The position numbers and the translations under genes were made by a program. From a bacterium (GTDB lineage: Bacteria > Zixibacteria > MSB-5A5 > WJJR01): a stretch of DNA of 64,000 bases. The notes below the pieces were generated by a model that worked only from the letters and a program-made list of their open reading frames with translations, was not told the origin of the DNA and made no database searches. Positions 10,742 to 62,970 of the stretch are shown in pieces. The first letter of the stretch is position 1. Each line of letters opens with the position of its first letter. The DNA lies in the NCBI GenBank assembly GCA_021813505.1, contig JAKAKI010000038.1:651-64650 (forward strand), written 5' to 3'.

Positions 10742-10842
10742 TGATTCAGCCTTTGCTTGTGATAGTGAGTATGAATTGAGCCGTCAGTAAGAGCCCCGAA
10801 ACAGGCGTCAAGAGTCCCGAATGGCTCGTCGAAAGCCCCGAA

Positions 10843-11020: not shown

Positions 11021-11091
11021 TTATTGTGCCCTTTGAGGGCAAAACACTAGGTGCGCTCTCCTCAGGGTCCTTCCTGAAGCGGGCGGCCTTC

Positions 11092-12237
11092 TCAGGCTCG
11101 CTCCTGGAGCAACCGGTAATACACATCCTCATACAAGGGCACGACGGCATCGGCGGTGAAATTGTCCTGGACGGATTTCAGGCCGTTCTCGCGGAGGCGT
11201 CCGGACAATTCGGGATTGGTCAGGATTTGGAAGAGCCGTTCACCGCCGGCTTCGTACTCGTCTGGACCGACTAGGAAGCCGGTCTTGCCATCCTGGATCA
11301 GTTCGGGAACACCGCCGACTTTGGAGGCGACCACCGGCACGCCGCAAGCCATGGCCTCGAGCGCCGCCAACCCGAAGGCTTCGTAGTGCGATGGCAGAAG
11401 AAACGCATCGGCGGCGCACAGGATCTCGTCGACATCCTCGCGATTGCCGAGAAACTTTACATCGGCGGCCACATCGAGCGACTTGGCGAGCGAAAACGCC
11501 TCGGCGGTTTGCGGTCCATCGCCGATCAACAGGAGTTTCGCAGGGAGCCGCTGCCGGAGTCGGGCGAACATGTGAATCACCCCGGGGATATTCTTTACGG
11601 CGCGGAAATTCGAAAGGTGCGCCACGACCTTCTCCCCTTCCGGAGCATACTTATGGCGGCATTGACCGGCTGGTCGTGCATGGAATCGGTCTGTATCAAC
11701 GAAATTACGGATCACTTCGATCGGACGGGATGTCCCGAACACACTGATTGTCTTATTGCGCAGATACTCGGATACGGCGGTCACGCCGTCGACGGCATCG
11801 ATTGAGAACCGGGTGATCTCGTAAAACGAACGGTCGGAGCCGACCAGCGTGATGTCGGTTCCGTGAAGTGTGCACAGTGTCTTCGGGGCATTCTCTCGCA
11901 TCGATTGGCGCGCGAGATAGGCGGAGATGGCGAATGGGAGCGCGTAATGGACGTGCAAAATGTCCAACCCGAATTGCTGTGACACCTCGATCATCTTCGA
12001 TGCCAAGGACAGGGTGTATGGCGGATACTTGAAGAGTGGGTAATCGGGCGTCTCGACTTCGTGGAAATACAACTCTGTCTTGAATCGATCCAGCCGGTAT
12101 GGCAACGCGTGACTGATGAAGTGGACCTCGTGGCCGCGCATCGCCAGCTTGGCACCGAGTTCGGTGGCGAGAATTCCCGATCCCCCGGGGACGGGGTAGC
12201 AGGTGATCGCGATACGCAGGGGGCGGCGGGTCATCAT
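11092..12237 (-). CDS. bshA: GT4 glycosyltransferase N-acetyl-alpha-D-glucosaminyl L-malate synthase (BshA)
   Basis: 381 aa. N-terminus LRIAITCYPVPGGSGILATELGAKLAMRGHEVHFIS and core TLHGTDITLVG...EAFGLAALEAMACGVPVVASKVGGVPE closely match characterised BshA. Confidence 0.85.
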   Translation of the reverse strand: MMTRRPLRIAITCYPVPGGSGILATELGAKLAMRGHEVHFISHALPYRLDRFKTELYFHEVETPDYPLFKYPPYTLSLASKMIEVSQQFGLDILHVHYALPFAISAYLARQSMRENAPKTLCTLHGTDITLVGSDRSFYEITRFSIDAVDGVTAVSEYLRNKTISVFGTSRPIEVIRNFVDTDRFHARPAGQCRHKYAPEGEKVVAHLSNFRAVKNIPGVIHMFARLRQRLPAKLLLIGDGPQTAEAFSLAKSLDVAADVKFLGNREDVDEILCAADAFLLPSHYEAFGLAALEAMACGVPVVASKVGGVPELIQDGKTGFLVGPDEYEAGGERLFQILTNPELSGRLRENGLKSVQDNFTADAVVPLYEDVYYRLLQERA

Positions 12238-12388
12238 TCCGAGGTCATTCCCGAAAGTCGTGAGAGCTGACGGGAGGGGAAGGCTCCCGCCGAGCCATTT
12301 TCCCGCGCGGTGAAGAGGATCGGCAGGAGCCTCGCCATCCCTCGAAACGCGGTCGGCAATTCAATGCAGCTCAGGGTAGTCGATTTCG

Positions 12389-30175: not shown

Positions 30176-30594
30176 AACAACTCCTTTGAAGCGATACGCT
30201 CCTGTACCTATGAATTCAGAATCACCAATCGTTGCTCTCCGAGTGGCGGACCAGGGACACGATGTTGACCTGATGGCATGCAAGATCACGCAACTTCAAC
30301 CCCGGCGAGACGGGGCTACCCTTCCGCCGCGAGTGAAAACTCAATGCCTGGACAGGATTCCCGATTCGGACCGGCGGAATCGACCGGCCCGAGGTCCCAG
30401 CATCGCGATCCCCGCATTTAGTATATCGTCATTACCGGAAAAACTGTGCGCCAATCAGTTCTGCCAATCTGCCGATACCCATTTTGTGACGAACTGAGCG
30501 GTACAATTCAGACACGACAGATATCGTTATCGGTCTTGGCGTTATGGAGCGCAGGATTCGCAGGCCGACAGTGGGGGATTTCTCCCATACAGAC

Positions 30595-36600: not shown

Positions 36601-39600
36601 GCGGGTTTCCATTCATAGGTGACACCGACCGCCGGATTGGAGATCACCGAAGCTGTCGCCAGGAGACTGTCGCAAGTCAGGTCATCTCCCGCGCAAGTCA
36701 ACACCGGCTTGGTGCGGTCGATCGTGACGAGCGCTGTGTCGTAGGCACTACAGTGAGTTTCAGGATTCGTCACCATGAGGACATAGGTACCGGCAGCGTC
36801 CACGATCGGAGAGGGGCTCGAGGCTCCCGACACGATGTGGCCACCGGAGTACGCGCTCCAGCTAAAGTTCACACCTGGAGTCGAGGAGGAGCCGTGCAAT
36901 GTGTCCAGCGTATTGGCACAGGTCAGGACCTGGTCCGCACCGGCGTTGACGTTGGGTCTGCTGATATCCCGCGTGACCAATGCTCCATCGGTCGCGGTAC
37001 AACCGTTGGCCGGATCCGTCACTGTCAGCGTGTAGGTTCCGGGGGCGTCAACCAGCGGCGAGGCCGTGGTTGAGCCGGAGACGATGTGTCCGCCATTGGA
37101 GGCCAGCCAACTGAAGGCGGCTCCCGGCGTGGTGGAGGATCCTGAGAGGTTGACTTGAGACACTTCGCAATTGAGGAACTTGTCCGGGCCGGCATTCGCA
37201 TTCGGCTTGGAAACATTGGACGTGACCAGTGCCGTGTCGAGCTTGGTGCAGCCGTTGGCGGGATTTGTCACGGTGAGGACATACGTGCCCGCGGAATCGA
37301 CCAGCGGGGTCGCAGTGCTGCCACCGGAAACTATATGGCCGCCATCGTAGGCCGCCCAACTGAAGGTGGCACTCGGAGTGCTCGATGATCCCGCAAGATT
37401 GACCTGCACCACTATGCAATTGAGAACTTTGTCCGGACCGGCATTGGCGTTGGGAGGCGCGGTATTCGCTGTGACCAGCGCGGTATCTGCCTTCGTACAG
37501 CCATTGGCCGGGTTCGTCACGGTCAGCACATAAGTTCCGGCCGCATCCACCAGAGGCGATGCGGTCGTGCCGCCGGAGACGATATGCCCACCGGCAAACG
37601 CGCCCCAACTGAATGTCGCACCGGGCGTGCTGGAGGAACCGGACAGATTGATCTGAGTCACCAGACAGGTAAGGACTTTGTCGGCACCGGCGTTGGCATT
37701 CGGCTTGGCCGTGTCCACCGTTACAAGCGCCGTATCTTTCTTCGTGCAACCATTGGCCGGATCGGTCACGGTCAGGATATAGGTTCCGGCCGCGTCGACC
37801 AGCGGGGTTGCAGTGGAGCCACCCGACACGATGTGCCCACCCGCCGCCACCGCCCAGGAGAATGTCGCCGACGGCGTGGTTGACGAACCATCGAGATTAA
37901 CCTGAGTGACAGTGCACGTGAGAACCTTGTCCGGACCCGCGTTGGCATTCGGCTTGGCCGTGTTGACGGTGACCAATGCCGTGTCCTTATCGGTACAGCT
38001 ATTGGAAGGATCGGTAACGGTCAAAACGTAGGTGCCGGCCGCATCGACTGTCGGAGTGGCGGTCGAGCCGCCGGAGACGATGTGACCGCCGCCGGTTGCC
38101 GTCCAGGAGAAGTTGATTCCGGGGGGCGTCGACGAACCCGAGAGCTGGACCTGCGACACGAGGCAAGTCAGGGCCTTGTCTGGACCAGCATTCGCAATGG
38201 TCGGGCAAATCGGGAAGGCATGATGGCCGATGGGCGCGTTGGACGGAGTCGCAACGGTATGTTCACCATCTGAGGCCGTGAAATAGTATTGAATGCTATC
38301 GCCGGAGCAAAGCAACTGACTGGCCGGCACCGTTGCGCAGAACGTGCTGTCCGTTCGCGTGGTCGCAACTGATGTGTATGATGTTGGACCATTTCGATAG
38401 AACAAGTTCACGGTCAGCGACGCGAGCGGCGTGTCTTTGTCTGTGACCCAGGCACAAAGCTGGACATTGGTCTTGGCCTTCTGGCAGATATTGTCCAGCG
38501 CAATGGTTGGCGGCGTGCGCTTGATGACCGGCGGGGCCTTTTCGCAATAATCGCCCGTGTCGCACGGTGCGCAGGTCAAATCAGCATTCTGATGGCAGAC
38601 GACAACCTGGTGGCAATCGCCGTCGGGGATTGTATCGATGCTGTTGTAGCAGATTTTGTAGCGTGTGCACAAGCGTTCCTTGATCGCGTCGTAGATCGAA
38701 TCGAGTTCCGCGCCGCTGGGGGCATGGAAGTGCGAACCACCGGATCCATTCGACAGCGAGACCAGATAGTGCGGATCAAAGTCGCTGCCCAGACTGATGG
38801 TATAGATCGGGATTCCGGCACCGAGTGCGAGACCGACGATCAGAGTCGAGTCATCGGTGAATCCGTTGTTAGGCTGGCTGCCGTTCAAGCCGTTCGGCGT
38901 GGCCGAAGTCCCGCAGTTCTGGCTTTCGTTTTCCAGACCATCGGTGAGGGCGATGACCGCCTTGCTGCCGAGTTCGGTCGTGGTCAGGCTGACGCCCTTC
39001 CAGGTGCCGTCGAAGAAGGCTGTCCTGCCGCTGGCGGACAGGCTATTAATGCCGGAGATGAGAAGCGCCGTGTCGCTGGTGAAATTCTGGACAACGGTGT
39101 AGCAGTCTGAGAACTTGACGATCGCCGTGCGATCATAGATCGACATCGCCCGCACGAACCGGCGTGCGGCATCCTTGGCTGCGGTAATCTTGCTGTTCGT
39201 GCCCATGCTGCCCGACACGTCAATCACCAGACAGGTTGACGTGCGGCACGAATCGCCGGTAAGCTCCTGAATCGTAAACTCGCTCATCCGGAAGCCGTCC
39301 TGGTAGACGCAGAAGCTATCTGCCGGGAGGTGGGGGATTGGAAGCCCGTTGGGATCGAGCACTTCAACGTAGGTGCAAATGAGCGGGAACAAACTCGCGT
39401 CGATCGACCCCAGGAAGACATCGGAGACGCCATTGACGCTTGCCGGCGAGAGAATGGAGGTGACTTTTGCCGCGGTGGTCAACGTGGGGCGTTGCTCGAC
39501 CATGTACGGGTCATCGGGCGTGCCAAGGTTGATCATCTTCTTCTCACTGGGGGCCGCGCCCAGGGCGATGACCGAAAGCGATATGGCCGCCAGGATCGCG

Positions 39601-39671
39601 CGAATGATCCATCCCAAGCGGGAGATTCCGCGCCGACCGTTCGGGGTGTACGACTTGTACAATTGCGACAT
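30651..39671 (-). CDS. giant repeat-rich cell-surface protein (3006 aa): signal anchor, VWA domain, 6 PKD-like repeats, 15 four-cysteine ~82-aa repeats, 5 PKD-like repeats, Ig-like modules, dockerin-like C-terminus
   Basis: Single ORF. ATG with GAGGAG SD. N-terminus MSQLYKSY...WIIRAILAAISLSVIALGAA. VWA/MIDAS CLVIDVSGSMG...AIVKFSD...IALTDGLEN. C-terminal ~800 codons nearly identical in nucleotide sequence to the neighbouring giant gene. Confidence 0.85.
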   Translation of the reverse strand: MSQLYKSYTPNGRRGISRLGWIIRAILAAISLSVIALGAAPSEKKMINLGTPDDPYMVEQRPTLTTAAKVTSILSPASVNGVSDVFLGSIDASLFPLICTYVEVLDPNGLPIPHLPADSFCVYQDGFRMSEFTIQELTGDSCRTSTCLVIDVSGSMGTNSKITAAKDAARRFVRAMSIYDRTAIVKFSDCYTVVQNFTSDTALLISGINSLSASGRTAFFDGTWKGVSLTTTELGSKAVIALTDGLENESQNCGTSATPNGLNGSQPNNGFTDDSTLIVGLALGAGIPIYTISLGSDFDPHYLVSLSNGSGGSHFHAPSGAELDSIYDAIKERLCTRYKICYNSIDTIPDGDCHQVVVCHQNADLTCAPCDTGDYCEKAPPVIKRTPPTIALDNICQKAKTNVQLCAWVTDKDTPLASLTVNLFYRNGPTSYTSVATTRTDSTFCATVPASQLLCSGDSIQYYFTASDGEHTVATPSNAPIGHHAFPICPTIANAGPDKALTCLVSQVQLSGSSTPPGINFSWTATGGGHIVSGGSTATPTVDAAGTYVLTVTDPSNSCTDKDTALVTVNTAKPNANAGPDKVLTCTVTQVNLDGSSTTPSATFSWAVAAGGHIVSGGSTATPLVDAAGTYILTVTDPANGCTKKDTALVTVDTAKPNANAGADKVLTCLVTQINLSGSSSTPGATFSWGAFAGGHIVSGGTTASPLVDAAGTYVLTVTNPANGCTKADTALVTANTAPPNANAGPDKVLNCIVVQVNLAGSSSTPSATFSWAAYDGGHIVSGGSTATPLVDSAGTYVLTVTNPANGCTKLDTALVTSNVSKPNANAGPDKFLNCEVSQVNLSGSSTTPGAAFSWLASNGGHIVSGSTTASPLVDAPGTYTLTVTDPANGCTATDGALVTRDISRPNVNAGADQVLTCANTLDTLHGSSSTPGVNFSWSAYSGGHIVSGASSPSPIVDAAGTYVLMVTNPETHCSAYDTALVTIDRTKPVLTCAGDDLTCDSLLATASVISNPAVGVTYEWKPAPVSGQGTAIARYDSPGSKWVIVTNPANGCVDSCEATITQNIRKPNLTCTGDTLTCNTVMASVSVSTNITEPVSYNWDPAPLSGQGSSHALYNAPGAKKVVVTILSSGCKDSCEAIVEQNAVKPVPICSGDDLTCDSLLATASVLLGGQSKSLTNISYFWTPAPVSGQGTNLARYDTPGFKKVVVTVLDSGCKDSCEAEITQHIAKPELSCHADSITCNKLQATATVQSSVVEGITYFWNPAPVSGQGTSQAVYDSPGIKWVTVTIAATGCKDSCSVDIVQDTYKPKLLCAGDELTCDSLQATASVSIVLDDAKIPPPLTFFWSPDPLSGQGTPWARYDTPGPKKVVVTYTPTGCKDSCEATITQNTRRPEISCGADTITCVHPQATAWVNSSPSEGVSYFWNPAPITGQGTTQAVYDTPGIKVVVVTILATGCKDSCLVDVQQNIYKPVLSCSGDQLTCDSLEATASVQLVSAASKIPFPFTFYWTPEPISGQGTQEARYNTPGTKWVVVTYTPSGCKDSCSAEIAQDVIKPLLSCSGDELTCDSLLASATVNLTDAQKLLVDVWGYFWSPAPISGQGTPFARYDTPGTKWVVVTYLPTGCKDSCSSVITQNIIKPSISCHGDELTCDSLLATASVSFDPSKILNGVTYLWAPEPISGQGTQWARYDAPGWKKVVVTFTATGCKDSCEANITQNTRRPEVACGADTITCAHPHATAWVNSGPSVGVSYFWDPAPLSGQGTTQAVYDTPGIKRVVVTILESGCKDTCTVDIQENLYKPQFICSGDELTCDSLLATASLQFPSAGSQAFIPFLIVWSPEPISGQGTPWARYDTPGQKKVVVTYGPTGCKDSCEATITQSIDKPFLSCSGDELTCDSLLASASVNFIEQAKNPNPAVYSYVWSPAPISGQGTPNARYDSPGTKWVVVTVLETGCKDSCSAVITQKIEKPSLSCSGDVLTCDSLQATASVTIGAPGQKTNGTVIIVWSPAPLSGQGTPFARYDTPGTKWVVVTDLASGCKDSCSAEIMQNARTPEFGCSGDELTCDSVLATASVNLPQSGKALNGFSYLWKPSPVSGQGTPFARYDTPGTKWVIITIPETGCKDSCAATITQNIFKPELQCFGDTLTCDSLQGTACVYWFDASKTSTPILSYQWRPEPVSGQGTACARYDTPGQKWAIVTFLPNGCKDSCAATIVQSNAVPNANAGTDKVLTCTVTQLNLSGSSSTPGVTFNWVASAGGHIVSGGTTATPTVDAAGTYTLTVTNPTNGCKASDVALVTLNNTPPNANAGADKILTCTATQLNLSGSSSTPGATFSWVASAGGHIVSGGSTATPLIDQPGTYTLTVTNPANGCTATDVASVTRNNTTPNADAGADKVLTCSVTQINLSGSSSTPGVTFSWVASAGGHIVSGGNTATPLVDQPGTYTLTVTNPTNGCTATDVALVTRNATTPNVSAGVDKVLNCSVTSINLSGSSTTQGVTFNWVASGGGHIVSGGTTATPLVDQAGTYTLTVTVTATGCKASDAATVTLDNTLPNADAGPDKALTCTITQIALSGASSTPGATFSWAATNGGHIVSGPTTATPIVDAAGTYTLTVTNPANGCMATDVALVTKTPNNPPVCVVPHDTSITTTTVPVTICLPVSGTDVDGDAVTCTKISGAGTLSGGQWCFTWSAPKDTSVLVGVRCRDACDSCSSQFRVTILYQSPVSPCEGNIAPECNLPHDTTIVQCIPTTVSLKLSATDANGNFKSCKIISGPGTISSRGNWNYTPYGPDTVTVTIRCTDSCGAFCEGTFTVSFVRDNLKPVCKPVLDTTVHACAEIPITIPLYANAVGMVNAYIVAGPGALADGFWVYVPTVNEDVRVTVQCQSFCGKSWKWSLTVRVRMDGNCASAIATDPSVSMPMTASAPDPCRCPAPGDIDADGQVSVSDLAVLCNVIYRVETVTTTGSCPEIQRCDVNCDGIVDRKDVDALTSYMFRQGKSLCDPCPKR

Positions 39672-46958: not shown

Positions 46959-47093
46959 GGTGCCACGGACAAGCAGATTCACCGGCCCTTTGGAGAATCT
47001 GCTTGTCCGTGCCTTCTATACAGAAGCAGAAGAAAGACACGGACAAGAAAGACCGAGCAAAGAACCACTCGATCTTCCTTGTCCGTGGCACCC
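46959..47093 (+). repeat. MITE-like 135-bp element (copy B) with perfect 15-bp terminal inverted repeats GGTGCCACGGACAAG...CTTGTCCGTGGCACC
   Basis: Terminal inverted repeats and two internal hairpins read directly. Lies between the convergent ptrB and gltS-like genes. Confidence 0.75.
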
Positions 47094-47290
47094 GAATGGT
47101 CGGGCATTCACCTGATCGGTCGGGTATTCCAGCACGCCCGATTGCTTGGGCACCCGCATGGGCAAGATTCCCATGTTACCAACGAATTAAAAATACCGAT
47201 GGCGGGTACGTTGGACCCGCCATCACTGCGTCCCTCTCGGAGACTGGGCCGATTACAATCAGTCCCCGCCGGGATATCGAAGACCGATGA

Positions 47291-48946
47291 TCAGTTCGGC
47301 CGCACTGGCATCGCAGATCCCGCCGACTTGGGATCGCCCAACTGCGATTTGCCCCGGTGGCCGTTGCCGCCGAAGATCTGGTCGACGGCCTCTTTATCGA
47401 CGTCCATGATGTACGGGATGCCACTGACCTTGGCGGCTTCCGGTGTGAGGGCAGCAAGGTCGTCGCGCGACATATACTCGAGAGCAAAGCGGCGGCTGCC
47501 GGCCATGAGCTGGCGCAGGCCCTGAGCGAGACGTTCGTAGTACGTGTACAGCCCGATCGCTCCGGGCGGGAGGCGGTCGAACGCGTCATCGCCAAGTTCC
47601 TTGCGCAGATCGCTCGCCGTAACGAAGATCTGATCGATCGTATCACCGAACCGTTCGACGTAGACAGGCAGTTGCTGATCTCGAATCGCCTGGCCGATGG
47701 TCTTGCCGACCATCGCGGCAGCAATTGGGGAGCGGGCCATGCCGACCAGCTTCACGAATGGAGCGCCCATTGCCAAACCCTTGAATATCTGATCTTCAAA
47801 CGTGAATCCGCCAGCAACCGCGAGAGTCGGAACGTGCTGTCCTGCCGCTTGCAGACGGGTGGCATACTGGTGAAGCAGCGAATGCAGCTCCAGCGGTGGG
47901 ACACCCCATTCATTCATCATCCGCCACGGGCTCATCCCGGTTCCGCCACCGGCACCATCGACGGTCAGCAGATCGATACCATAGCGGGAGGAGAAGACAA
48001 TGGCGCGGGCCAGATCGACCGGCCGATAGGCGCCGGTCTTGAGGAAGATGTACTTGGCGCCGATCTTGCGGAGGTTTTCGACCGCCTGCGCGAACGCATC
48101 CTCGGTCACCATGCCGACACGCGAGTGGCGTTCGAATTCCTTGAAGGCGCCGTGCTCGAAGGCCCGGATGACATTCGGGTCGGTGGGATTCGGCATGACG
48201 ATGTAACCGCGTTCGTAGAGCATCTGCGCTTTCTTCAAGTTCCGGATCTTGACCTCGCCACCGATGTCTTTGGCGCCCTGTCCCCACTTCATCTCCACGC
48301 ATTCGACACCCAGCTTTTCGATGGCGTATTGGTGTACGCCGAGCCGGGTGTCTTCGATATTGGACTGGACGATGATGGCGCCGTAACCGTCGCGCTGATG
48401 ATCTTTGAAGAGATTGACGCGGCGCTTGAGGTCGACCGTGTCAATGACCCGGCCGTCGCGGATAATCGATTCCACGTCCATCCCGGCAACGTTCTCGCCA
48501 ATCGTCAATCCGGTTCCCGCGAGCGCGGAGCCGATGGCCAGGCCCTCCCAATTGTTCTTGGCGATGTCGGTCGAGCCGATGCCGGGAATGATCCAGGGAT
48601 AGCGGAACTTGAGCTTCTTGTCATGTCCAAAGCGGACCTCGAGACTGACCGCCGGGAAGATGGCCTTGTCGGAATCGGCCGCCACACCGAATGCGCCGGC
48701 CGCGGTGCCCATGATGTTGAGGTGCGAATAATCGAGCGGGTAGTCCTTCTCGGCCGCGGTCGTGATGACGCCGAACGGCTGGGGATAGATCACCTCGTGC
48801 CCCCGGAAGGCCGATTTCCCGATTTCGCACATGCCGATACACCCGTCGACGCAGGTCACGCACATTCCCGAGGTGTGCACGATCGAACCTTCGGTCCGGT
48901 TCTTCGTCAGGGTTGCTGCCGACGTATTGATTCTGGACAGTGACAT
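47291..48946 (-). CDS. archaeal-type glutamate synthase large-subunit homolog (FMN-binding GltS domain 2 with N-terminal Cys-rich Fe-S region)
   Basis: 551 aa from ATG (MSLSRINT) with AAAGGAG SD. Cys cluster CVTCVDGCIGMCEIG. TIM-barrel GltS_FMN hallmarks (LKTGAYRPVDLARAI, DGAGGGTGMSPWRMMNEWGVP, VAGGFTFEDQIFKGLAMGA). Confidence 0.75.
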   Translation of the reverse strand: MSLSRINTSAATLTKNRTEGSIVHTSGMCVTCVDGCIGMCEIGKSAFRGHEVIYPQPFGVITTAAEKDYPLDYSHLNIMGTAAGAFGVAADSDKAIFPAVSLEVRFGHDKKLKFRYPWIIPGIGSTDIAKNNWEGLAIGSALAGTGLTIGENVAGMDVESIIRDGRVIDTVDLKRRVNLFKDHQRDGYGAIIVQSNIEDTRLGVHQYAIEKLGVECVEMKWGQGAKDIGGEVKIRNLKKAQMLYERGYIVMPNPTDPNVIRAFEHGAFKEFERHSRVGMVTEDAFAQAVENLRKIGAKYIFLKTGAYRPVDLARAIVFSSRYGIDLLTVDGAGGGTGMSPWRMMNEWGVPPLELHSLLHQYATRLQAAGQHVPTLAVAGGFTFEDQIFKGLAMGAPFVKLVGMARSPIAAAMVGKTIGQAIRDQQLPVYVERFGDTIDQIFVTASDLRKELGDDAFDRLPPGAIGLYTYYERLAQGLRQLMAGSRRFALEYMSRDDLAALTPEAAKVSGIPYIMDVDKEAVDQIFGGNGHRGKSQLGDPKSAGSAMPVRPN

Positions 48947-49030
48947 CTTACTCGCTCCTTTCAACCGTCAATGATTTCATCATCATAGCCTATGCGATCA
49001 TTCCCGTGTGGCATGCGTGGCCGGACGGCC

Positions 49031-49708
49031 TCAGTCTTTCTTGATCTCGCAAGCGACACACGGTGTCATGTAACACATCATATCATCGAACTGCGGCTTG
49101 TCGACGCAGGGCGGCTCCAGATTACCGCAACCGCCGCAGATCGCCTTCTCCGGCTGGTTATAGGTGCAACGAAGCTGGCAGGCCGGGCAGACGTAGATAC
49201 ATCCACCGCAGAGACGGCAGACTTCGGATTTGGCATCGAACGGCGTGCCGAGGCTGCGATGCTCGCCACGGCCACGGAAACCGATCGCGTGGGCCATCAT
49301 CTGTTCGGAACACATGCGCAGGCACAGCCCGCAGAGAATGCAATCCTCGTGTTCCTGCCGGAAACGCTGCTGCCGTACGCCATGCTCGGAGGCGAGATCC
49401 TGAATGACCTTCGATTGCGGGCAGGTGGCGAGCAGCAATTCGATCACCATCTTGCGTGCCTTGACTACACGCGCCGAGGAGGTGCGTACAATCAGACCCG
49501 CTTCGGCCGGATAGGTGCAGGAGCTGACGAGCCGCGACTTGGGGCTCTCGCCAATCTCCACAACACACAACCGGCAGGCGCCGTACGGCGATAGGCCCTC
49601 CATGTGGCAGAGCGTGGGAATCGGAAAGCCGAGAAACTTGGCGGCTTCGAGGACGGTTGTCCCTTCCTCTACGGTGACATTCAATCCGTTAATCTTCAGA
49701 GTGATCAC
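49031..49708 (-). CDS. 2Fe-2S / 4Fe-4S ferredoxin-domain protein (NuoG N-terminal / HndD-BfuA-like fragment)
   Basis: GTG start with GGAGGGAG SD. VITLKINGLNVTVEEGTTVLEAAKFLGFPIPTLCH (2Fe-2S fold) followed by His-ligated and CxxCxxCxxxCP 4Fe-4S motifs. Start overlaps the stop of the upstream gene (GTGA). Confidence 0.75.
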   Translation of the reverse strand: MITLKINGLNVTVEEGTTVLEAAKFLGFPIPTLCHMEGLSPYGACRLCVVEIGESPKSRLVSSCTYPAEAGLIVRTSSARVVKARKMVIELLLATCPQSKVIQDLASEHGVRQQRFRQEHEDCILCGLCLRMCSEQMMAHAIGFRGRGEHRSLGTPFDAKSEVCRLCGGCIYVCPACQLRCTYNQPEKAICGGCGNLEPPCVDKPQFDDMMCYMTPCVACEIKKD

Positions 49709-52700
49709 AGGGCAACTCCCTCCACGACCGAGACCTCGGCGTTGGTCTTCGATGGCTGGGTGAATTCGAGATCGCAACGCAGGCAACGTCCGGCCTCACG
49801 GCGCGCGTCCTCGGTGGACAGGGTTCCGTCGACTTCGGCGAAGCTGCGCCTCCGGGCCTCGACAGCAACGTGGGGCGCAACGGCGCGGTGGCCGTTGCCA
49901 TTCCCGTCTCCAGGAGGCCCAACCGGTTCGACGTAAATGTGCGGCAGACGGGCAGTCCCCGGCTGGCGAAGAGTCGTGCCGGAGAGATACCGGTCGATCA
50001 TTACCGCGGCCTTCTTCCCTGCCGCCACCGCATCGATCACTGTGTTGGGTCCGGTCACCACATCCCCGGCGGCGAAGACTCCGGGGCGATTGGTCAGAAG
50101 AGTCGCCGGATCGGCATTAACCGTGCCGAACTTGCTCATCTCGATCAAGCTGGAGCTGGCGGCGCGGATGCAGTCGGTGTCGGATCCCTCGCTGATGGCG
50201 ACGATCAAGGTATCCAGCGAGGCGGTGAACTCGGTTCCGGGAACTGGTTCCGGCTGGGGCCGGCCACTGGCATCGCGAGGGCCGAGTTTATTCCGGAGGA
50301 ATTCCACCCCCGTCAGGCGGCCATCTTTCGCGAGGATTCGCATCGGTGTGACCAACGGTTCGAGGATGACGCCTTCCTCGATGGCGGCTTCGATTTCTTC
50401 GGCAAAAGCCGGCATCTCCGCCCGGGTGCGGCGGTAGAAGAGTGTGACGCTTTTGACTTCTTTCTGCCGGAGCGCCAAGCGAGCGGCGTCGACGGCCGAG
50501 TTCCCACCGCCAATGACACCCACGTGGCCACGCGCCAGAGCGAATCCCCCGGTATTGAATGCTCTCAGGAATTCGATGGACGGATAGATGCCGGGAGTGT
50601 CCTCACCGGGGAGTCCCAGGCGCAGGCTCTTGTGCGCGCCGATCGCGATCAGCACCGCCTTGTAGCCATCCGACTGGAGACTGTCGATGGTGAAGTCTCG
50701 TCCGAGGGCGGCGTTGCAGCGCACTTCGATATTCTCATCGAGGATCGATTCGATTTCTTTGCGAATCACATCGGGTGGCAGGCGGTAGGCCGGGATGGCG
50801 CTGTAGAGCATGCCGCCGGGTTTGGCGGCCTGCTCGAAAATGGTCGAGCGATAGCCGCGCAATGAGAGGTGATGCGCCGCGGTCAGCCCCGCGGGGCCGG
50901 AACCGATGATCGCGACCTTTGGCGAATTGGAGTCCGGATACGCGGTCCGCAGTGGCCGATACGTTGACGGATCGACGCGATCAGTTACGAAGCGCTTGAG
51001 GGCACGAATCGCAATCGCCTCTCCCCCGTGCTCGCCGGCCCGGCAATGCTCTTCGCAGGGATGATTGCACACACGGGAACAAACCGACGGGAAGGGATTG
51101 GCTTCGCGAATCACACGGTAGGCTTCCTCGTACTCGCCACGCCGGATGTGGGCGACATAGCGCCACGCCTCGGTGCCCGCAGGACAGGCCGACTGGCACG
51201 GCGCCCCGACCAGATCCTTGCAGACGTGGGCATCGCACTTCTTGTCCCAAACGTGGCGTTCGCACTCCTCGCGGAAATAGCGCAACGTGCTGAGCACCGG
51301 GTTGGGTGCGGACTGCCCGAGGCCGCACATGGTTGTGTCCTTGACCGTGGTGGCAAGTTCTTCGAGCAAATCGAGCTGGTCGAGAGTCCCCTTGCCTTTC
51401 GAAATGTCCTCGAGGATTTCGTACATGCGTTGCGTGCCCTTGCGGCAGGTGAAGCACTTGCCGCAGGACTCATCTTTCAAGAACGACATGAAGTACTTGG
51501 CGACGTCCACCATGCAGGTGCGTTCGTCCATGACGATCATGCCGCCGGAACCCATGATCGAACCGGCCTTGGTCAGGCTGTCGTAATCGATGGGAAGGTC
51601 AAACATCCTCGCCGGAATGCATCCGCCGGAGGGACCGCCGGTTTGCACGGCCTTGATCTTTGCGCTTCCAACCTGCCCGCCACCGATTTCATAGACGACA
51701 TCCCGGATCTTTATGCCGAGAGGGACCTCAACCAAGCCGGTACTCTTGATCTTGCCGACGAGCGAAAAGATCTTCGTACCGGTGTTGCCGGGCACGCCGA
51801 TTTTTGCGAATTCTGCTCCGCCGCGGTTGATGATCACCGGGATGTTCGCCAGCGTTTCGACGTTATTGATACACGTCGGATGTCCGTCGATTCCCTTGTG
51901 AATCGGATACGGCGGGCGCTGGCGGGGCTCTCCGAGTTTGCCCTCAACTGACTTTATCAGCGCTGTTTCCTCGCCGCATACGAAAGCGCCGGCGCCGCGC
52001 ACGATGGACATATTGAACCTCAGATCGGATCCGAGAATCCTGTCGCCGAGCAATCCCAGTTCGGTGGCGTGCTTGATGGCGATGTAGGAATGCTTGACGG
52101 CGAGAGGGTATTCGCTGCGTACGTAGATGATGCCTTCGGTCGCGCCGATCGCGATTCCGGCGATGATCATCCCCTCGAGGATCGCGTGCGGGTTGCCCTC
52201 GAGAAGGCTTCGATCCATATAGGCACCCGGATCGCCCTCGTCGGCGTTGCAAACGACGAACTTCTGCTCGTCTTTCCGGCCGGAGGTGCGGGCGAGGCGC
52301 CACTTTTGTCCGGTGGGAAATCCCGCGCCGCCACGTCCGCGCAGACCCGAGGCAATGACTTCCTGAATGATCGCATCCGGATCGGGGCTGGAGAGGACTT
52401 TCTCAAGAGCAGTGTATCCCCCCAACGCCAGGTAGTCGCGAATCCGAATGGGGTCGAGCTTTTCGTTGCTCCCCAAAATCGTCCGTGTCTGCTTCTCGAA
52501 GAAGGGAATGTCGTTTTGGGAGTACCGCGGGCGCCCGTCCCGGGCGTCCTTGTAGATTAGTTGTTCGTCAACGTAATCTCCGAGAACCGCGTCGATAACG
52601 CGAGGCACATCTTCCATGCGCAACTTCGGATAGAGCTGGCGTCCGGGTTGCACCAGGATGAAAGGATCCATTTCGCAGAATCCCTGGCACCCGGTGATTC

Positions 52701-52896
52701 GCAGACCGAGACGGTCCTGTATGCCGCGTTCAAGCAGGACGCGCTTGATCACGCGGATGATATCGTTGGAACCACTGGCCTGTCCGCCGGTCCCAGCACA
52801 GACAACCAATGTGGGCCGGTCGTACCGGATGGTCTGCTCGCTGTAGATGTCCTGCCGAAAGCGCGCAAGATCCTGTACCGATTGAAGCCTCATCAT
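49705..52896 (-). CDS. fusion of NuoF-type NADH-binding FMN/4Fe-4S flavoprotein (with N-terminal thioredoxin-like 2Fe-2S domain) and GltD/NfnB-type FAD/NAD(P) oxidoreductase
   Basis: NuoF motifs GRGGAGFPTGQKW, ESCGKCFTCRKG. GltD-like part VAIIGSGPAGLTAAHHLSLRGYRSTIFEQAAKPGGML with two CxxCxxCxxxCP clusters before it. ATGA overlap with the upstream nuoE-like gene. Confidence 0.8.
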   Translation of the reverse strand: MMRLQSVQDLARFRQDIYSEQTIRYDRPTLVVCAGTGGQASGSNDIIRVIKRVLLERGIQDRLGLRITGCQGFCEMDPFILVQPGRQLYPKLRMEDVPRVIDAVLGDYVDEQLIYKDARDGRPRYSQNDIPFFEKQTRTILGSNEKLDPIRIRDYLALGGYTALEKVLSSPDPDAIIQEVIASGLRGRGGAGFPTGQKWRLARTSGRKDEQKFVVCNADEGDPGAYMDRSLLEGNPHAILEGMIIAGIAIGATEGIIYVRSEYPLAVKHSYIAIKHATELGLLGDRILGSDLRFNMSIVRGAGAFVCGEETALIKSVEGKLGEPRQRPPYPIHKGIDGHPTCINNVETLANIPVIINRGGAEFAKIGVPGNTGTKIFSLVGKIKSTGLVEVPLGIKIRDVVYEIGGGQVGSAKIKAVQTGGPSGGCIPARMFDLPIDYDSLTKAGSIMGSGGMIVMDERTCMVDVAKYFMSFLKDESCGKCFTCRKGTQRMYEILEDISKGKGTLDQLDLLEELATTVKDTTMCGLGQSAPNPVLSTLRYFREECERHVWDKKCDAHVCKDLVGAPCQSACPAGTEAWRYVAHIRRGEYEEAYRVIREANPFPSVCSRVCNHPCEEHCRAGEHGGEAIAIRALKRFVTDRVDPSTYRPLRTAYPDSNSPKVAIIGSGPAGLTAAHHLSLRGYRSTIFEQAAKPGGMLYSAIPAYRLPPDVIRKEIESILDENIEVRCNAALGRDFTIDSLQSDGYKAVLIAIGAHKSLRLGLPGEDTPGIYPSIEFLRAFNTGGFALARGHVGVIGGGNSAVDAARLALRQKEVKSVTLFYRRTRAEMPAFAEEIEAAIEEGVILEPLVTPMRILAKDGRLTGVEFLRNKLGPRDASGRPQPEPVPGTEFTASLDTLIVAISEGSDTDCIRAASSSLIEMSKFGTVNADPATLLTNRPGVFAAGDVVTGPNTVIDAVAAGKKAAVMIDRYLSGTTLRQPGTARLPHIYVEPVGPPGDGNGNGHRAVAPHVAVEARRRSFAEVDGTLSTEDARREAGRCLRCDLEFTQPSKTNAEVSVVEGVAL

Positions 52897-53834
52897 GATG
52901 CGCTTCCCCTCTCTGGAGCATTAAAGGCCGCCGTGGCGCCTGACCGGCCGGAATCGAGATCCAGCGTATGTGACGGACAACCGCGGCGGGAACAGAATTG
53001 CACAATCCCCCCACCCGTGATGCCGAGAGGTACCATCGGTGCGTCGCAGTCATTGCAATGGACGGGCCCCGCCAAATCGTGGTCACAATTCGGGCAGCGA
53101 AAACTCGTGATGCTGTCGTTTGGGAAAAGCGTATCCGTCACCGAATGGACGCTCCCGTAGAGGCGGGACAGATTGATCCAGCCGCTTTGCCCATCGGCGT
53201 TACCGCGCAATCGAATAGAGGCCTGGCCATCAACAAGGTGTGCCTCATCCAAAAGAGAGTGCCCACAGCGCGGGCACTGGACATTGAGCGGAAAGATGCG
53301 TTCGTCATGCAGCGCATCGTCGGCTTCCGAGCCGCGGATCGCTTTCGCGATGATGGGCTCCACCTTGGCCACACCAACGTTGGGATTGTAGCGGCCGTCG
53401 ACGACCACGATCGGGCCGAGCGCACAGGCCCCCAGGCAATTGACCGTTTCCAAAGTGAATTCCCGGTCCGTAGTGGTCGCGCCGGGATTGATTCCGAGGC
53501 GCCGCTTTAACTCCTCGACCACGCCGGGCGCCCCCCGGACATGGCAGGCGGTGCCGACGCAGGCGGATACCAGATGACGGCCGCGAGGGCTGAGACTAAA
53601 CGCGCGGTAGAAGGTCGCCACGCTATAGATGTCCACTAGCGACCGGCGGCTCTTCAGCGCCACTGCCTCAAGCGCCCCCCTCGACAGATATCCGTATTTC
53701 TGCTGAATATCCTCCAGAACCGAGATGAGTGCGCCGCGGCGGTCAGCATGCTTCTCGACAACACGAGCTACTTCTTCTGCAATCATGTCTTCCTCACCGA
53801 TGAAGTCGAACTTAGCGTTCCAATAGGCAAACAT
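52893..53834 (-). CDS. NuoE/HoxE-type thioredoxin-like [2Fe-2S] ferredoxin with C-terminal Cys-rich (4x CxxC) extension
   Basis: Core CVGTACHVRGA...CLGACALGPIVVVDG. C-terminal CPRCGH...CPNCDH...CNDCDAPM...CSRRGCPSH. Start uncertain (ATG at ~53834 MFAYW or ~53786 MIAEEV). Confidence 0.7.
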   Translation of the reverse strand: MFAYWNAKFDFIGEEDMIAEEVARVVEKHADRRGALISVLEDIQQKYGYLSRGALEAVALKSRRSLVDIYSVATFYRAFSLSPRGRHLVSACVGTACHVRGAPGVVEELKRRLGINPGATTTDREFTLETVNCLGACALGPIVVVDGRYNPNVGVAKVEPIIAKAIRGSEADDALHDERIFPLNVQCPRCGHSLLDEAHLVDGQASIRLRGNADGQSGWINLSRLYGSVHSVTDTLFPNDSITSFRCPNCDHDLAGPVHCNDCDAPMVPLGITGGGIVQFCSRRGCPSHTLDLDSGRSGATAAFNAPERGSAS

Positions 53835-54060
53835 TCTTAGCGATACTTCTCGCAGTGCCAGACACCGCCCAGCGGCTTGGCGTCGCTGCAGGTGAAGCGA
53901 TCCTTGCAATCGCGGCAGAGACCGTTGAACCCCTCACTCGGCTGCCGATCTTGCCGCCGCGGGGTGGTCCCTTTTTTCCCTTCGGGCTTGCCCTTCGGAC
54001 TCATTGTCAGCAATCCCTGCGCGACCCCAATTGGCCGCGCATCCTCCGCTCCCGAAACGG

Positions 54061-54082
54061 GGCAACCATCATGCCGTCAAGG
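54061..54082 (-). promoter_or_regulatory. candidate sigma-54 (-24/-12) promoter CGGCAT-N5-TTGCC upstream of the nuoE-like operon
   Basis: Minus-strand reading of 54061-54082 gives GACGGCATGATGGTTGCC with GG and GC spaced exactly as in TGGCAC-N5-TTGCA. ~230 nt upstream of the operon start and directly downstream of a sigma-54 activator gene. Confidence 0.3.
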
Positions 54083-54316
54083 CCATATGGATCAGACAAT
54101 TGGGTATTCTTTGTCACTTGGAGTGGCGCGAGAGAAATACGGTCAAATTCCCCGAATGAAAAGTGAGATTATGACTGATGAGTCGTCTAATCTCTATGAC
54201 AGCAGCGTCAGACAGTAATGCTGAGAATCACCCGGAAATGCGGGGAATTCGGAATCGGCGGGGAGGAACTACCCGGTGGACTGGGTCGACGAAGTGGACG
54301 GAGTGGACTTAGTGGA

Positions 54317-55672
54317 CTATGGCTCGTCGGGGGCACCCGAGAGTTTGAGTTTCTCGCGGAGGGTCTTGCGGTCGATGCCGAGGATTTCGGCGGCGCGCGT
54401 CTTGTTGCCGTCAACCGACGCCACGACATTGCGAATGTGGTCGGCCTCGACTTCGGCGAGTGTGCGGTGAACCCCGCTTTCGCGAAGCGCGCGGAATCGC
54501 ATCAGCGACGGCAGATCCGGCACTTCGATCAGGTCCCCCTCGCTCATGACGACCAGCCTTTGGATCACGTTTTCCAGTTCACGCACATTGCCGGGCCAGT
54601 AGTAGTTGCGCAGGACATCGAGGGCATCCTCGGAGAATCGAGGTGCAGGACGGCCCTGCTCGCCGGCGAATTTCTCGGCGAAGTAACGAATCAACAGAAT
54701 GATGTCATCGCCCCGATCGCGGAGCGGCGGGATGGAGATCGTGATGACATTGAGCCTAAAGTAGAGATCCTCCCGAAACGTCCCCTTCTTCACCAGCCCA
54801 AAGAGGTCTTTGTTGGTCGCGGCCAGGATGCGAACATCGACTTTGCGACTCTTGGTGTCGCCAACGAGACAGACATGCTTGTCCTGCAGGACGCGCAGGA
54901 GCTTGACCTGCATTGCCAGGCTGGTTTCGCTGATTTCGTCCAGGAAGATCGTGCCCCCGTCCGCAGTCTGGAAGAATCCGGCGCGTGTCTCGGTGGCACC
55001 AGTGAACGCCCCTTTGAGGTGGCCGAAGAGTTCGCTCTCAAGAAGTGTTTCCGGGATTCCACCGCAATTGACGGCGACAAACGGGGCTGCCCCCCTGGGG
55101 CTCCCGTAGTGGATAGCACGTGCCAGCAGTTCCTTGCCGGTGCCACTCTCCCCGGTGATCAGGACAGTGGCGGCAGTGCCCGCTGCTTTGGTGACCGCAG
55201 CGAATACGTTTTGCATCGCCTCCGAGGCAGCGATGAATCCGTGCTTGGAGGCCGGAGACTGTGCAATGGCCAGTTGCTGCGCGCGCAACGCCGGCAGGCG
55301 ATCCAAGGCGCGGCCGACCGCGGCCAGCAGTTCATCAGCACTGAATGGTTTTGCCAGGTACTCCTCGGCCCCTGCCTTGACCGCAGCGACCGCCCCTTCG
55401 ATGGAAGCGTAGCCGGTGATCATCATGACTTCGGTGGTCTTGAAGTTCTCCCGGACATGGCGCACCAGATCCAAGCCGGGAGAACTCGGCATTTTCTGAT
55501 CAGTGATCACCAAATCGACGCGGCAGCCTTCGAGGAGCTTGACCGCCTCCGCAACGCCGGGAGCGGTCAGGACACGGAATCCCGCTGGGGAGAGATTGCG
55601 GCGGATGACCTCGAGTGTGTCGGGGGAATCATCCACGACGAGGATGGTTGTCTTCGCGGCAGTTGAGGACAA
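54317..55672 (-). CDS. sigma-54-dependent Fis-family response regulator (NtrC-like enhancer-binding protein)
   Basis: Receiver domain (ILVVDDSPDTL...DLVITDQKMP). AAA+ sigma-54 interaction domain with GAFTGA (GHLKGAFTGATE), Walker A GESGTGKE, and C-terminal Fis HTH. Confidence 0.9.
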   Translation of the reverse strand: MSSTAAKTTILVVDDSPDTLEVIRRNLSPAGFRVLTAPGVAEAVKLLEGCRVDLVITDQKMPSSPGLDLVRHVRENFKTTEVMMITGYASIEGAVAAVKAGAEEYLAKPFSADELLAAVGRALDRLPALRAQQLAIAQSPASKHGFIAASEAMQNVFAAVTKAAGTAATVLITGESGTGKELLARAIHYGSPRGAAPFVAVNCGGIPETLLESELFGHLKGAFTGATETRAGFFQTADGGTIFLDEISETSLAMQVKLLRVLQDKHVCLVGDTKSRKVDVRILAATNKDLFGLVKKGTFREDLYFRLNVITISIPPLRDRGDDIILLIRYFAEKFAGEQGRPAPRFSEDALDVLRNYYWPGNVRELENVIQRLVVMSEGDLIEVPDLPSLMRFRALRESGVHRTLAEVEADHIRNVVASVDGNKTRAAEILGIDRKTLREKLKLSGAPDEP

Positions 55673-61353: not shown

Positions 61354-62970
61354 TCAGGACACAGCGGCAGAGACCGGCTCATGGTGGACATGGCGCAGCC
61401 CGGTCGTTTCGGTGTTGATCCACGGGAAGGACTGCGTGGTCAACACCTCGATGAAGATGTTCACAAGATTGGGGTCGAATTGGGTGCCGGCGCAGTCCTG
61501 GAGTTCCTTGCGGGCGTCCTCCCAGGTGCCGGCCGTTCGATAGGGCCGGTCCGACGTCACCGCGTCAAACGTGTCCACCACCGCGAGGATTCGGCCTTCG
61601 ATGGGGATCTTGTCCCCTGCCAACCCCGTCGGGTATCCCTTGCCGTCATAGCGCTCGTGATGGTAATACACGTACGGTACCGCCGGTTTCAGAAAGGGAA
61701 CATCCTGAATGATGGTCGCGCCGATTTCGGGATGACGCTTCATCAATTCAAACTCTTCCGGGGTCAGCGGGGCCGGCTTGTTGAGGATGTGGTCGGGCAC
61801 ACCGATCTTCCCGATATCGTGAAGGGTGCATCCGATCCACAGATCGAAGAGCTGCTCGACACCCCAGCCCAGACGGCGGGCAATCGCCTGTGCCAGAACC
61901 TTGACGCGGTCGGTGTGGCCGCGCGTGTAGGGGTCACGCGTTTCAATCGCGTTGGCCAGCGCCGCCACGGTGTCCATGTAGGCACTTTGGACGTTCTTGT
62001 AGAGGCGGGAGTTCTCGATGGCGATGGCGGCCTGGGCGGCGGTGATTTCAATCGACCGCATCGTGCCTTCGCTGCAAGGGCCGGCGTTTGATTTGCGGAT
62101 CAGATTCAGTACGCCGATGACGGAGCCTTTGGCGATCAGGGGCTGGCAGATGAGATCGTGTTCGCGGAGCCCGCTTTCGAACATGTCGGTCTGGCGTCCG
62201 CTGAGCACGATGGTGCGTCCGGTGGCCAGACCGGTTTGAACCGCCGGCGTGACGCCCTTGAGGAATTCGAGGTAGGTGGGATTGTGTGTCAGTTCATTCT
62301 CGCCGTCCATGACCTGCAACTGCAGGGCGGGACGCGATCCTGTGCGCAGGAGAATCGATGCCGCCTGGACGGAGAATTCGCGCCGCACGGTTTCGATGAC
62401 CATGCTCAGCAATTGGTCGAGTTCCAAAGTTGATCCGATCGCACGAACCAGCTCGGAGATGGCGACTTGTTCCCGCAACTGCATGTTTTCGCGGCGCATG
62501 CGTCCGCGTTCCAGCGCGCGGCGCACTGTCGTGATCAGGTGCTGGACTTTGAATGGCTTAAGCAGATAATCGTCGACACCAAGTTGCATCGCCTCGATGG
62601 CGGTTTCGACGGTCGGGTAGCCGGTGATGAGAATGGAGATGAGATCGGGCTGGTGAATGTGTCCGGCACGAATCACATCGACACCGCTGGCATCTTCCAG
62701 CATGAGATCGGTCAACAGCAGCGCGATGGGCTGAGATGACAGGATGCGCTCGGCCTCTGCGCCATCGCCGGTCGCCACGACCTTGAGGCCCATTTCATGT
62801 TCGAGACATTCCCGTAACAGGCGCCGTAGAAGCGGATCATCATCCACGACGAGGACTGTCCCGACAGAGGAGTTCATCGGGCGCGATGACAGGGACAGGT
62901 CAGTCATTTCACCAGTAGTATCGGGTGTTGAAACAGGACTGTTCAGCGATACATTCGGCAATTGACTCAT
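61354..62970 (-). CDS. response regulator with receiver, GAF and HD-GYP (c-di-GMP phosphodiesterase) domains
   Basis: Receiver VLVVDDDPLLRRLL...LLLTDLMLEDASG. HD-GYP motifs HTDRV...LHDIGKIGVPD...HHERYDGKGYP. Confidence 0.9.
   Translation of the reverse strand: MSQLPNVSLNSPVSTPDTTGEMTDLSLSSRPMNSSVGTVLVVDDDPLLRRLLRECLEHEMGLKVVATGDGAEAERILSSQPIALLLTDLMLEDASGVDVIRAGHIHQPDLISILITGYPTVETAIEAMQLGVDDYLLKPFKVQHLITTVRRALERGRMRRENMQLREQVAISELVRAIGSTLELDQLLSMVIETVRREFSVQAASILLRTGSRPALQLQVMDGENELTHNPTYLEFLKGVTPAVQTGLATGRTIVLSGRQTDMFESGLREHDLICQPLIAKGSVIGVLNLIRKSNAGPCSEGTMRSIEITAAQAAIAIENSRLYKNVQSAYMDTVAALANAIETRDPYTRGHTDRVKVLAQAIARRLGWGVEQLFDLWIGCTLHDIGKIGVPDHILNKPAPLTPEEFELMKRHPEIGATIIQDVPFLKPAVPYVYYHHERYDGKGYPTGLAGDKIPIEGRILAVVDTFDAVTSDRPYRTAGTWEDARKELQDCAGTQFDPNLVNIFIEVLTTQSFPWINTETTGLRHVHHEPVSAAVS

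Follow-up and report, generated by a model that had tools for sequence, protein, structure and literature searches.

We analysed a 64,000-nt stretch of the Zixibacteria contig JAKAKI010000038.1 (hereafter the window, to which all coordinates refer) and found, from its open reading frame (ORF) list and from Pfam and NCBIfam searches of the window proteins, six co-oriented minus-strand genes at 47291-55672, namely a sigma-54 activator followed by a five-gene operon. The operon pairs a Bfu-type redox module, made up of NuoE-like, NuoF-GltD and ferredoxin subunits, with a flavoprotein that resembles the flavin mononucleotide (FMN) domain of glutamate synthase (GltS). This pairing is widespread, and the literature that we searched for a Bfu-GltS enzyme, a NuoF-GltD fusion or an ammonia-dependent GltS contained no biochemical characterisation or enzymology of it. 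Given the strict synteny and the gene coupling, the five genes very likely encode a single multi-subunit enzyme. A role in central nitrogen and glutamate metabolism is the best-supported statement about its function. Within that role, we tentatively favour a Bfu-type 2-oxoglutarate reductive aminase driven by NADH or NADPH, a reading that we regard as a serious possibility that still falls short of probable.

Operon organisation and conservation

The genes lie where the initial annotation, made from the letters of the DNA, had placed them, and Pfam and NCBIfam confirm each domain identity that it claimed (Table 1). The overlaps that it described were also read directly, an ATGA at 52893-52896 and a GTGA at 49705-49708 (4 nt each). 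Its coupled unit of four genes behind a sigma-54 activator is indeed coupled and conserved, but it had overlooked a fifth gene, a small cysteine-rich ORF whose stop codon is separated by a 2-nt gap from the ATG of the NuoE-like gene. An AAGGAG site precedes the ATG at 48946 of the FMN gene, and this codon, not the TTG at 48964, is most likely the start. The sequence agrees with a contig of the NCBI metagenome-assembled genome record GCA_027457265.1, where identical gene calls are found, and a member of the same 90%-identity protein cluster carries a Zixibacteria label. Past the terminator-like hairpin downstream of the operon, the convergent intergenic region holds an imperfect 20-pair long hairpin (47039-47086, minus strand).

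Table 1. Features of the operon region, all on the minus strand
Feature	Position	Strand	Basis
NtrC-family sigma-54 activator	54317..55672	-	Pfam REC + Sigma54_activat (AAA+) + HTH_8; GAFTGA in translation
Candidate sigma-54 promoter cGGCAtgatggTTGCc	54061..54076	-	57 nt upstream of small ORF; three mismatches
Small Cys-rich ORF, 55 aa	53837..54004	-	One GLCxxCx5Cx13CEKY unit
BfuC/HydC/NuoE-like [2Fe-2S] subunit	52893..53834 (alternative start 53909)	-	Pfam 2Fe-2S_thioredx, E 4.5e-43; Cys-rich C-terminal extension
NuoF-GltD fusion, 1063 aa	49705..52896	-	Complex1_51K, NADH_4Fe-4S, Fer4_20, Pyr_redox_2
Mini-BfuA ferredoxin, 225 aa	49031..49708	-	Fer2_4 + Fer4_7; [2Fe-2S] + 2x[4Fe-4S] motifs
GltS-like FMN TIM-barrel protein, 551 aa	47291..48946	-	PF01645; N-terminal CxxCxxxCxxxC; presumed catalytic subunit
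Intrinsic-terminator-like hairpin with T-run	47197..47225	-	66 nt past FMN gene stop

A scan of species-representative genomes gave at least 600 matches. The family was divided into three subfamilies, a (the window type), b (Firmicutes, 42% identical) and c (50% identical, 81 metagenome loci), with 170 related loci in all, and 80 loci were kept for the subfamily-a counts. Wherever the contig was long enough for tblastn with the window proteins to assess gene order, essentially all 80 loci, from more than 12 phyla, kept the order NuoE-NuoF(-GltD)-ferredoxin-FMN. Unbiased ORF clustering around the same loci recovered the FMN protein in all 80, a NuoF-like protein in 79, the ferredoxin in 72, a NuoE-like protein in 61 and a regulator or kinase in 55. 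Two architectures were distinguished among the 68 full-length relatives of the NuoF-like protein: 48 (about three quarters) are NuoF-GltD fusions as in the window, while 20 (about a quarter) carry a C-terminal 2x[4Fe-4S] ferredoxin domain and no GltD module. Conservation is highest in the FMN protein (about 80% identity, versus 55-65% for GltD), which is never missing.

The FMN subunit is a distant relative of glutamate synthase

Relatives of the FMN protein number more than 8000 in the database. Identities among the best 120 are 79-90%, and these sequences represent Acidobacteriota, Planctomycetota, KSB1, Zixibacteria, WOR-3, Eremiobacterota and Thermodesulfobacteriota. The window protein falls into a tight clade of its own, with about 80% identity across many phyla. 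A family search detected 1078 of 1.84 billion cluster representatives at E < 1e-3. The window protein matches PF01645 weakly and partially (55.7 bits against a cut-off of 20.4, residues 287-406 only), and so do all 62 sampled members of the three subfamilies, with a best value of 6e-19; FMN_dh, NMO and IMPDH reached 1e-4 at best on the same 62 sequences. Since every sampled member matches PF01645 and the other families are far weaker, the subunit is predicted to be an FMN (beta/alpha)8 barrel, with GltS as the family closest to it in sequence.

On these comparisons, the subunit is not the archaeal-type GltB that had been proposed. When the E. coli GltB FMN domain was searched by tblastn (E < 1e-5) against the 170 related loci and the window, no member of the three subfamilies was found, and the sole FMN-domain match was the canonical GltS gene of one locus, L091. 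The FMN protein alone retrieved nothing relevant among PDB sequences, and the family profile retrieved no GltS chain there even at E = 10. The hhalign comparison of the family with GltS aligned 85 columns at 67% probability.

We then considered predicted structure and invariant residues. An AlphaFold model built from the 80%-identical clade alone was unusable (pLDDT 50), whereas the three subfamilies together gave a pLDDT of 81.8. Foldseek searches with the predicted structure placed GltS (1ofd/1llw) among the top matches, with the highest query-normalised TM-score of those listed and with identities (15-19%) higher than those of the other families. In the structure searches, FMN-dependent 2-hydroxy-acid oxidases/dehydrogenases and IDI-2 ranked level with or above GltS. 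The only invariant cysteines are those of an N-terminal C-x2-C-x3-C-x3-C motif (all four in 79 of 79 sequences). Residues K220, Q223, A225, K226 and G230 are invariant across the three subfamilies, and the K220-G230 stretch lines up with E. coli GltB 'IKVAQGAKPGEGGQ' by eye only, an alignment that hhalign did not return.

The FMN subunit might alternatively be one part of a split GltS whose free-standing class-II amidotransferase is encoded elsewhere. GltS enzymes made from separate ORFs occur in archaea and in some bacteria, one such set adjoins the L091 paralogue, and the Geobacter work discussed below treats GSU1239 as a glutamate synthase (GOGAT). We consider this highly improbable, as no such amidotransferase gene is a recurrent neighbour in the 80 subfamily-a loci, the subunit is devoid of the 3Fe-4S site, and the strict conservation of its additional segments at both termini suggests an architecture different from that of GltS.

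The redox subunits resemble electron-bifurcating cores

The suspicion that the redox subunits are Bfu/Stn-like was borne out for all of them. The NuoF part has its top PDB score, 635 bits, with A. woodii HydB (7q4v_B), reaches 560-630 bits with NiFe-Bfu B, T. kivui HydB, NfnB, WOR-Bfu B and StnB, and scores about 340 bits with complex I NuoF; the hinge motif H-x6-C-x4-C is conserved in its alignment. The GltD part is nearest to NfnA of T. sibiricus (330 bits) and C. saccharolyticus (324) and to StnC (287), followed by T. maritima NfnB (271), P. furiosus NfnL (234) and A. brasilense GltD (207). The best PDB match of the ferredoxin is 9mqx_A, the 247-aa BfuA of WOR-Bfu, and it has the N-terminal [2Fe-2S] and [4Fe-4S] motifs of a BfuA without the His-ligated cluster motif. 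The NuoE-like subunit best matches HydC (8a6t_C) and NiFe-Bfu C (7t2r_C), and the four cysteines of its [2Fe-2S] site C1 are kept in 54-55 of 55 sequences.

Two of these proteins carry further conserved cysteines. The NuoE-like subunit has a C-terminal extension of about 130 aa (52893-53300 in the window) with eight cysteines that are invariant in 55 of 55 sequences and arranged in pairs as CxxC...CxxC and CxxC...Cx4C, and the ferredoxin has, at its C-terminal end (49031-49180 in the window), eight more invariant cysteines besides those of its three recognisable clusters (68 of 68 sequences). These extra residues imply putative additional metal sites outside any Pfam model.

The bifurcating Bfu core is only partly retained in the BfuB-like subunit. 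The B1 [4Fe-4S] site is invariant in 48 of 48 sequences (Cys478/481/484/524). The N-terminal [2Fe-2S] site B5, in contrast to its expected four cysteines, reads C33, G38, C70 and C74 in the window, with C70 and C74 alone invariant across the family, and the C-terminal 2x[4Fe-4S] ferredoxin domain (B3/B4) is absent from the window protein and replaced by a GltD-type Fer4_20 and flavin adenine dinucleotide (FAD) module. As judged from its motifs, the window BfuB is therefore without two features that define bifurcating Bfu enzymes, the C-terminal ferredoxin domain and one N-terminal cluster cysteine, while the ferredoxin-domain variant appears to have the B1, B3/B4 and C1 clusters of the Bfu core and at most three of the four B5 cysteines. 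The incomplete B5 site is not disqualifying for bifurcation, since the T. sibiricus enzyme bifurcates although its B5 site carries Zn (PMC12018979). In published Bfu structures, ferredoxin receives its electrons by way of C1 and of B3/B4 in the C-terminal domain of BfuB, and the third substrate feeds B1 through BfuA (PMC12018979). Transferred by homology, these routes would have the window GltD module sit where the low-potential exit is otherwise found, with the FMN protein as the terminus of the BfuA branch.

These similarities also allow an alternative in which the NuoE/NuoF-GltD/ferredoxin trio acts chiefly as a rearranged Stn/Nfn-Bfu transhydrogenase and keeps NADH, NADPH and ferredoxin in balance, for instance by supplying NADPH to a co-encoded NADP-type glutamate dehydrogenase. 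The FMN protein would then be an accessory electron outlet or regulator and would not itself form glutamate. Its GltD part is closest to NfnA/StnC and its BfuB and BfuC parts to bifurcating cores, such a dehydrogenase gene is found in the operon in 12 loci, and CD0828 of C. difficile, a GltS-like FMN protein, has been discussed as an electron-transfer partner and not as a glutamate synthase (PMC11980386). Against this stand the FMN protein itself, the one component that is both best conserved and always present, the quarter of operons that do without the GltD module, and the attachment of GltD to BfuB at the ferredoxin-domain position, unlike its location on BfuA in Stn/Nfn. We regard a transhydrogenase as improbable.

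Nitrogen-gene context and regulation

In subfamily a, just one gene recurs besides those of the operon, that of an ELFV-family NADP-type glutamate dehydrogenase (12 of 80 loci). In L032 and L062 (Scalindua rubra) it is found after the small ORF and before the NuoE-like gene; in other loci it either immediately precedes the NuoE-like gene or directly follows the FMN gene. Neighbours in subfamily c include BfuB/BfuC/BfuA-like genes (11 loci), NfnAB-like PyrK+GltD pairs (7), GAF-sigma-54 activators (7), glutamine synthetase (6), carAB (6) and glutamate dehydrogenase (4). One locus, L093, has the order P-II, band-7, glnA, amt, HTH/cupin regulator, FMN(c), NuoE, NuoF, ferredoxin and FMN(a-like), the last 66% identical to the window protein, and a Firestonebacteria locus (L090) has amt, P-II and glnA followed further along by glnA, FMN(c), a purF-like gene, carA and carB. 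Two paralogous GltS-like FMN genes share one cluster in L093 (6995-13917), L170 and L146, which could point to a hetero-oligomer or to a pair of linked reactions.

A similar assignment has been made in Geobacter. An RpoN-regulon study of G. sulfurreducens lists GSU1235-1239 as a GOGAT operon with a predicted RpoN promoter upstream (PMC2725144), and GSU1239 went up together with glnA in one transcriptome (PMC6964889). In annotation and order, the five genes GSU1235-1239 parallel our operon: two are annotated as hypothetical proteins, and the others as a pyridine nucleotide-disulphide oxidoreductase, an Fe-S protein and a glutamate synthase-related protein.

The window regulator shares 61-73% identity with the operon-upstream regulators of 39 related loci. 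Its REC, AAA+ (with GAFTGA) and Fis-type helix-turn-helix domains, called by Pfam, place it among the NtrC-family sigma-54 response regulators, and its scores reach none of the NCBIfam equivalog cut-offs (AtoC 425/714, NtrC 414/558). In relatives, the regulator is preceded by a GAF-HisKA-HATPase kinase. We scanned 51 upstream regions for the sigma-54 consensus TGGCAC-N5-TTGCW, with GG/GC fixed and at most two mismatches allowed, and found such sites in 32 related loci (63%) versus 6.9% of shuffled sequences.

The long spacer between the regulator and the NuoE-like gene was first considered as a possible riboswitch or leader RNA; Rfam returned nothing for it, and it turned out to contain the small ORF. 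A homologue of this ORF occupies about 30 of the 31 spacers examined, usually as a protein of 95-123 aa with two GLCxxCx5Cx12-14CEE[YF] repeats, whereas the window copy has one unit; the small ORF matches no Pfam family. In a Phycisphaerales chromosome (L002:4755-5798), a nitroreductase-family gene lies between the sigma-54 regulator and the NuoE-like gene, and ORF clustering found a nitroreductase-family neighbour common to three loci.

Subfamily b shows a different setting, in which the FMN gene stands alone or beside DUF134, NifX-like and MinD-ferredoxin ATPase genes. In Sedimentibacter sp. MB31-C6 (L087:6691-11940), FMN(b) is found with DUF134, Nitro_FeMo-Co (NifX-like) and a MinD-type ATPase with a ferredoxin insert, and a rubrerythrin gene is nearby.

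The FMN subunit might act on another small substrate, such as 2-oxoglutarate/2-hydroxyglutarate, a different 2-oxo or imino acid or a stress-related compound, in a catabolic or detoxifying operon whose nitrogen neighbours would reflect shared metabolites and no synthesis of glutamate. The high rank of 2-hydroxy-acid enzymes and IDI-2 in the structure searches, the Firmicutes PF01645 relatives with their rubrerythrin and DUF134 surroundings and no nitrogen genes, the nitroreductase gene within the L002 cluster and the canonical GltS next to the paralogue in L091 and L150 are all compatible with this. The neighbours are, however, specifically enriched for glutamine synthetase, glutamate dehydrogenase, Amt, P-II, carAB and GAF-sigma-54 activators, PF01645 alone is significant by sequence, and the GltS-like QGAK motif is conserved. 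We judge a different substrate to be unlikely, though deserving of attention.

Proposed function

In the reductive aminase reading, the five genes would produce one soluble iron-sulfur flavoenzyme complex, expressed via sigma-54 and the NtrC-family response regulator. The HydBC/Bfu-type core, with its NuoE-like [2Fe-2S] and NuoF-like FMN/[4Fe-4S] subunits, would take hydride from NADH, and the GltD module, in place of the ferredoxin domain, would provide a second FAD site that is probably NADPH-specific. Electrons might then travel via the small BfuA-like ferredoxin, and via the four-cysteine site near the N-terminus of the FMN subunit, to the FMN of that subunit, whose K-x2-Q-G-A-K-x2-G-G motif resembles the 2-oxoglutarate/FMN site of GltS. 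There, the imine formed from 2-oxoglutarate and ammonia would be reduced to glutamate without a glutaminase domain, with ammonia and not glutamine as the presumed nitrogen donor. Reductive amination with free ammonia, which we favour, agrees with the GltS-like motif, with the lack of a glutaminase and with the neighbouring genes.

A bolder version of the reductive aminase reading, which we consider improbable, would make the complex a flavin-based electron-bifurcating glutamate synthase, that is, both a new Bfu class and a fourth, glutaminase-free type of glutamate synthase. NADH would be oxidised at the BfuB flavin, and the downhill branch would run via BfuA to the GltS-like FMN, where 2-oxoglutarate and ammonia would give glutamate (about -130 mV). 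This drop would pay for an uphill branch to ferredoxin in the ferredoxin-domain variant, or to NADP+ via GltD in the window variant.

Several observations weigh against assigning glutamate synthesis to the operon. No N-terminal nucleophile (Ntn, class II) glutaminase or GXGXG domain, both of which the initial annotation had also reported missing, is encoded in the operon, in the window or in 168 of the 170 related loci, nor within about 9 kb of the operon in subfamily-a loci. The region where GltS has its [3Fe-4S] motif C-x5-C-x4-C, after the GGTG strand, contains no cysteine, and the reading is weakened by how far the FMN subunit appears to lie from canonical GltS. A complete canonical GltS adjoins FMN(c) in two loci, a split archaeal-type enzyme in L091 and gltB with gltD in L150; its presence beside a paralogue means that these loci do not imply that the FMN protein is the glutamate synthase, and the function of the FMN family may be related to but distinct from glutamate synthesis. 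Adjacency to glutamate dehydrogenase is equally compatible with glutamate breakdown. The window regulator is an orphan with no adjoining histidine kinase, and the strict sigma-54 consensus is absent from the window, where the best site departs from TGGCAC-N5-TTGCW at three positions and is for this reason not significant alone. The window glutamine synthetase gene (7-1203, minus strand; 57-62% identical to the glutamine synthetases of related loci) says little, being about 46 kb from the operon and cut by the left window edge. Finally, GSU1235-1239 was likened to the operon by annotation and gene order and not by sequence.

The proposed nitrogen role draws its support from the glutamate dehydrogenase and P-II/glnA/amt context in relatives and from the Geobacter operon, and not from the glnA of the window, which the initial annotation had cited. 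The candidate glutamate synthase of that annotation is called into question by the canonical enzymes of L091 and L150.

If the reductive aminase reading is correct, an unrecognised ammonia-assimilating Fe-S flavoenzyme would exist in many anaerobes, among them Zixibacteria, Planctomycetota (including the anammox genus Scalindua), Ignavibacteria, Acidobacteriota, syntrophs and probably Geobacter, tying glutamate synthesis directly to the NADH, NADPH and ferredoxin pools. Metabolic reconstructions, in which the gene is now ignored or labelled GOGAT by default, would change, and a flavin-substrate class would be added to the Bfu family. Under the bifurcating version, ammonia assimilation during nitrogen limitation would yield low-potential reductant at no ATP cost. 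Whatever its reaction, about 80% identity over more than a dozen phyla points to a strongly constrained enzyme.

Other genes in the window

SelB (6138-8213) and SelA (8301-9713, minus strand) adjoin, and their presence together indicates that the organism uses selenocysteine; the SelA ORF had been a candidate for glnA, which was rejected in favour of the gene at the window edge. A PIG-L deacetylase, a GT4 glycosyltransferase and BshC follow in a row at 10016-14020 (minus strand), which looks like a BshB/BshA/BshC bacillithiol biosynthesis cluster. Two adjacent giant minus-strand ORFs, 21866-30289 (2807 aa) and 30651-39671 (3006 aa), contain Ig_7, PKD, VWA and dockerin domains and are recent paralogues, as identical 16-mers recur at a constant offset of 8782 nt (for example at 23146/31928 and 23507/32289). 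The gene at 61354-62970 (minus strand) encodes a response regulator that contains GAF and HD-GYP-type (HD_5) domains; it is a possible c-di-GMP phosphodiesterase and apparently unrelated to the operon.

Comparison with known systems

The pairing with a GltS partner had been put forward as undescribed, and the Bfu classification paper agrees with this: the classes that it distinguishes are hydrogenase, Fdh, Nfn, F420, Wor, Bam, Codh, Por, Mbh, Nuo and Rub, another 17 clades have no assignment, and neither a GltS-type partner nor a relevant entry in the supplement text was found.

The operon has several parts in common with the Nfn-Bfu/StnABC enzymes (NfnABC of T. sibiricus and C. saccharolyticus, Stn of S. 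ovata), namely the BfuC-like [2Fe-2S], BfuB-like NADH/FMN and NfnL/GltD-type FAD/2x[4Fe-4S] parts; their chains 9n5u_A, 9bov_A and 8oh5_C are the best PDB matches of the GltD part, and Nfn/Stn are among the best for the NuoF part. In Stn/Nfn-Bfu, however, the GltD module sits on BfuA (StnC) and is followed by a formate-dehydrogenase-like domain, whereas in the window it sits on the BfuB C-terminus in place of B3/B4, and BfuA is only 225 aa long without the formate-dehydrogenase-like domain. The window operon also adds the FMN TIM-barrel subunit and the small Cys-rich protein. HydABC [FeFe]-hydrogenases supply the top-scoring PDB relatives of the NuoF and NuoE parts and have the same hinge motif, but the operon has no H-cluster subunit, three of the four B5 cysteines and, in about three quarters of the family, a replaced ferredoxin domain.

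GltBD and the split archaeal-type GltS likewise pair a PF01645 FMN barrel with a GltD-type FAD/Fe-S donor and have a QGAK-type motif, with which that of the window family lines up by eye, and relatives of the window family are tied to glutamine synthetase, Amt and P-II genes. The window protein, in contrast, is similar over only about 120 residues and has an N-terminal four-cysteine site instead of the Ntn glutaminase, the GXGXG domain and the 3Fe-4S motif. C. difficile CD0828, likened here by description and not by sequence, is a stand-alone GltS-like FMN protein of about 500 aa that has a metal-Cys domain at its N-terminus and lacks a glutaminase (PMC11980386); it differs in its rubredoxin fusion, its oxidative-stress rbr operon and the absence of a Bfu module. 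WOR-Bfu (WorABCSL, a Type 2 Bfu) has a similarly short BfuA, and both systems combine BfuABC with separate catalytic subunits, a tungstopterin aldehyde oxidoreductase in WOR-Bfu and, presumably, the FMN barrel in the window operon.

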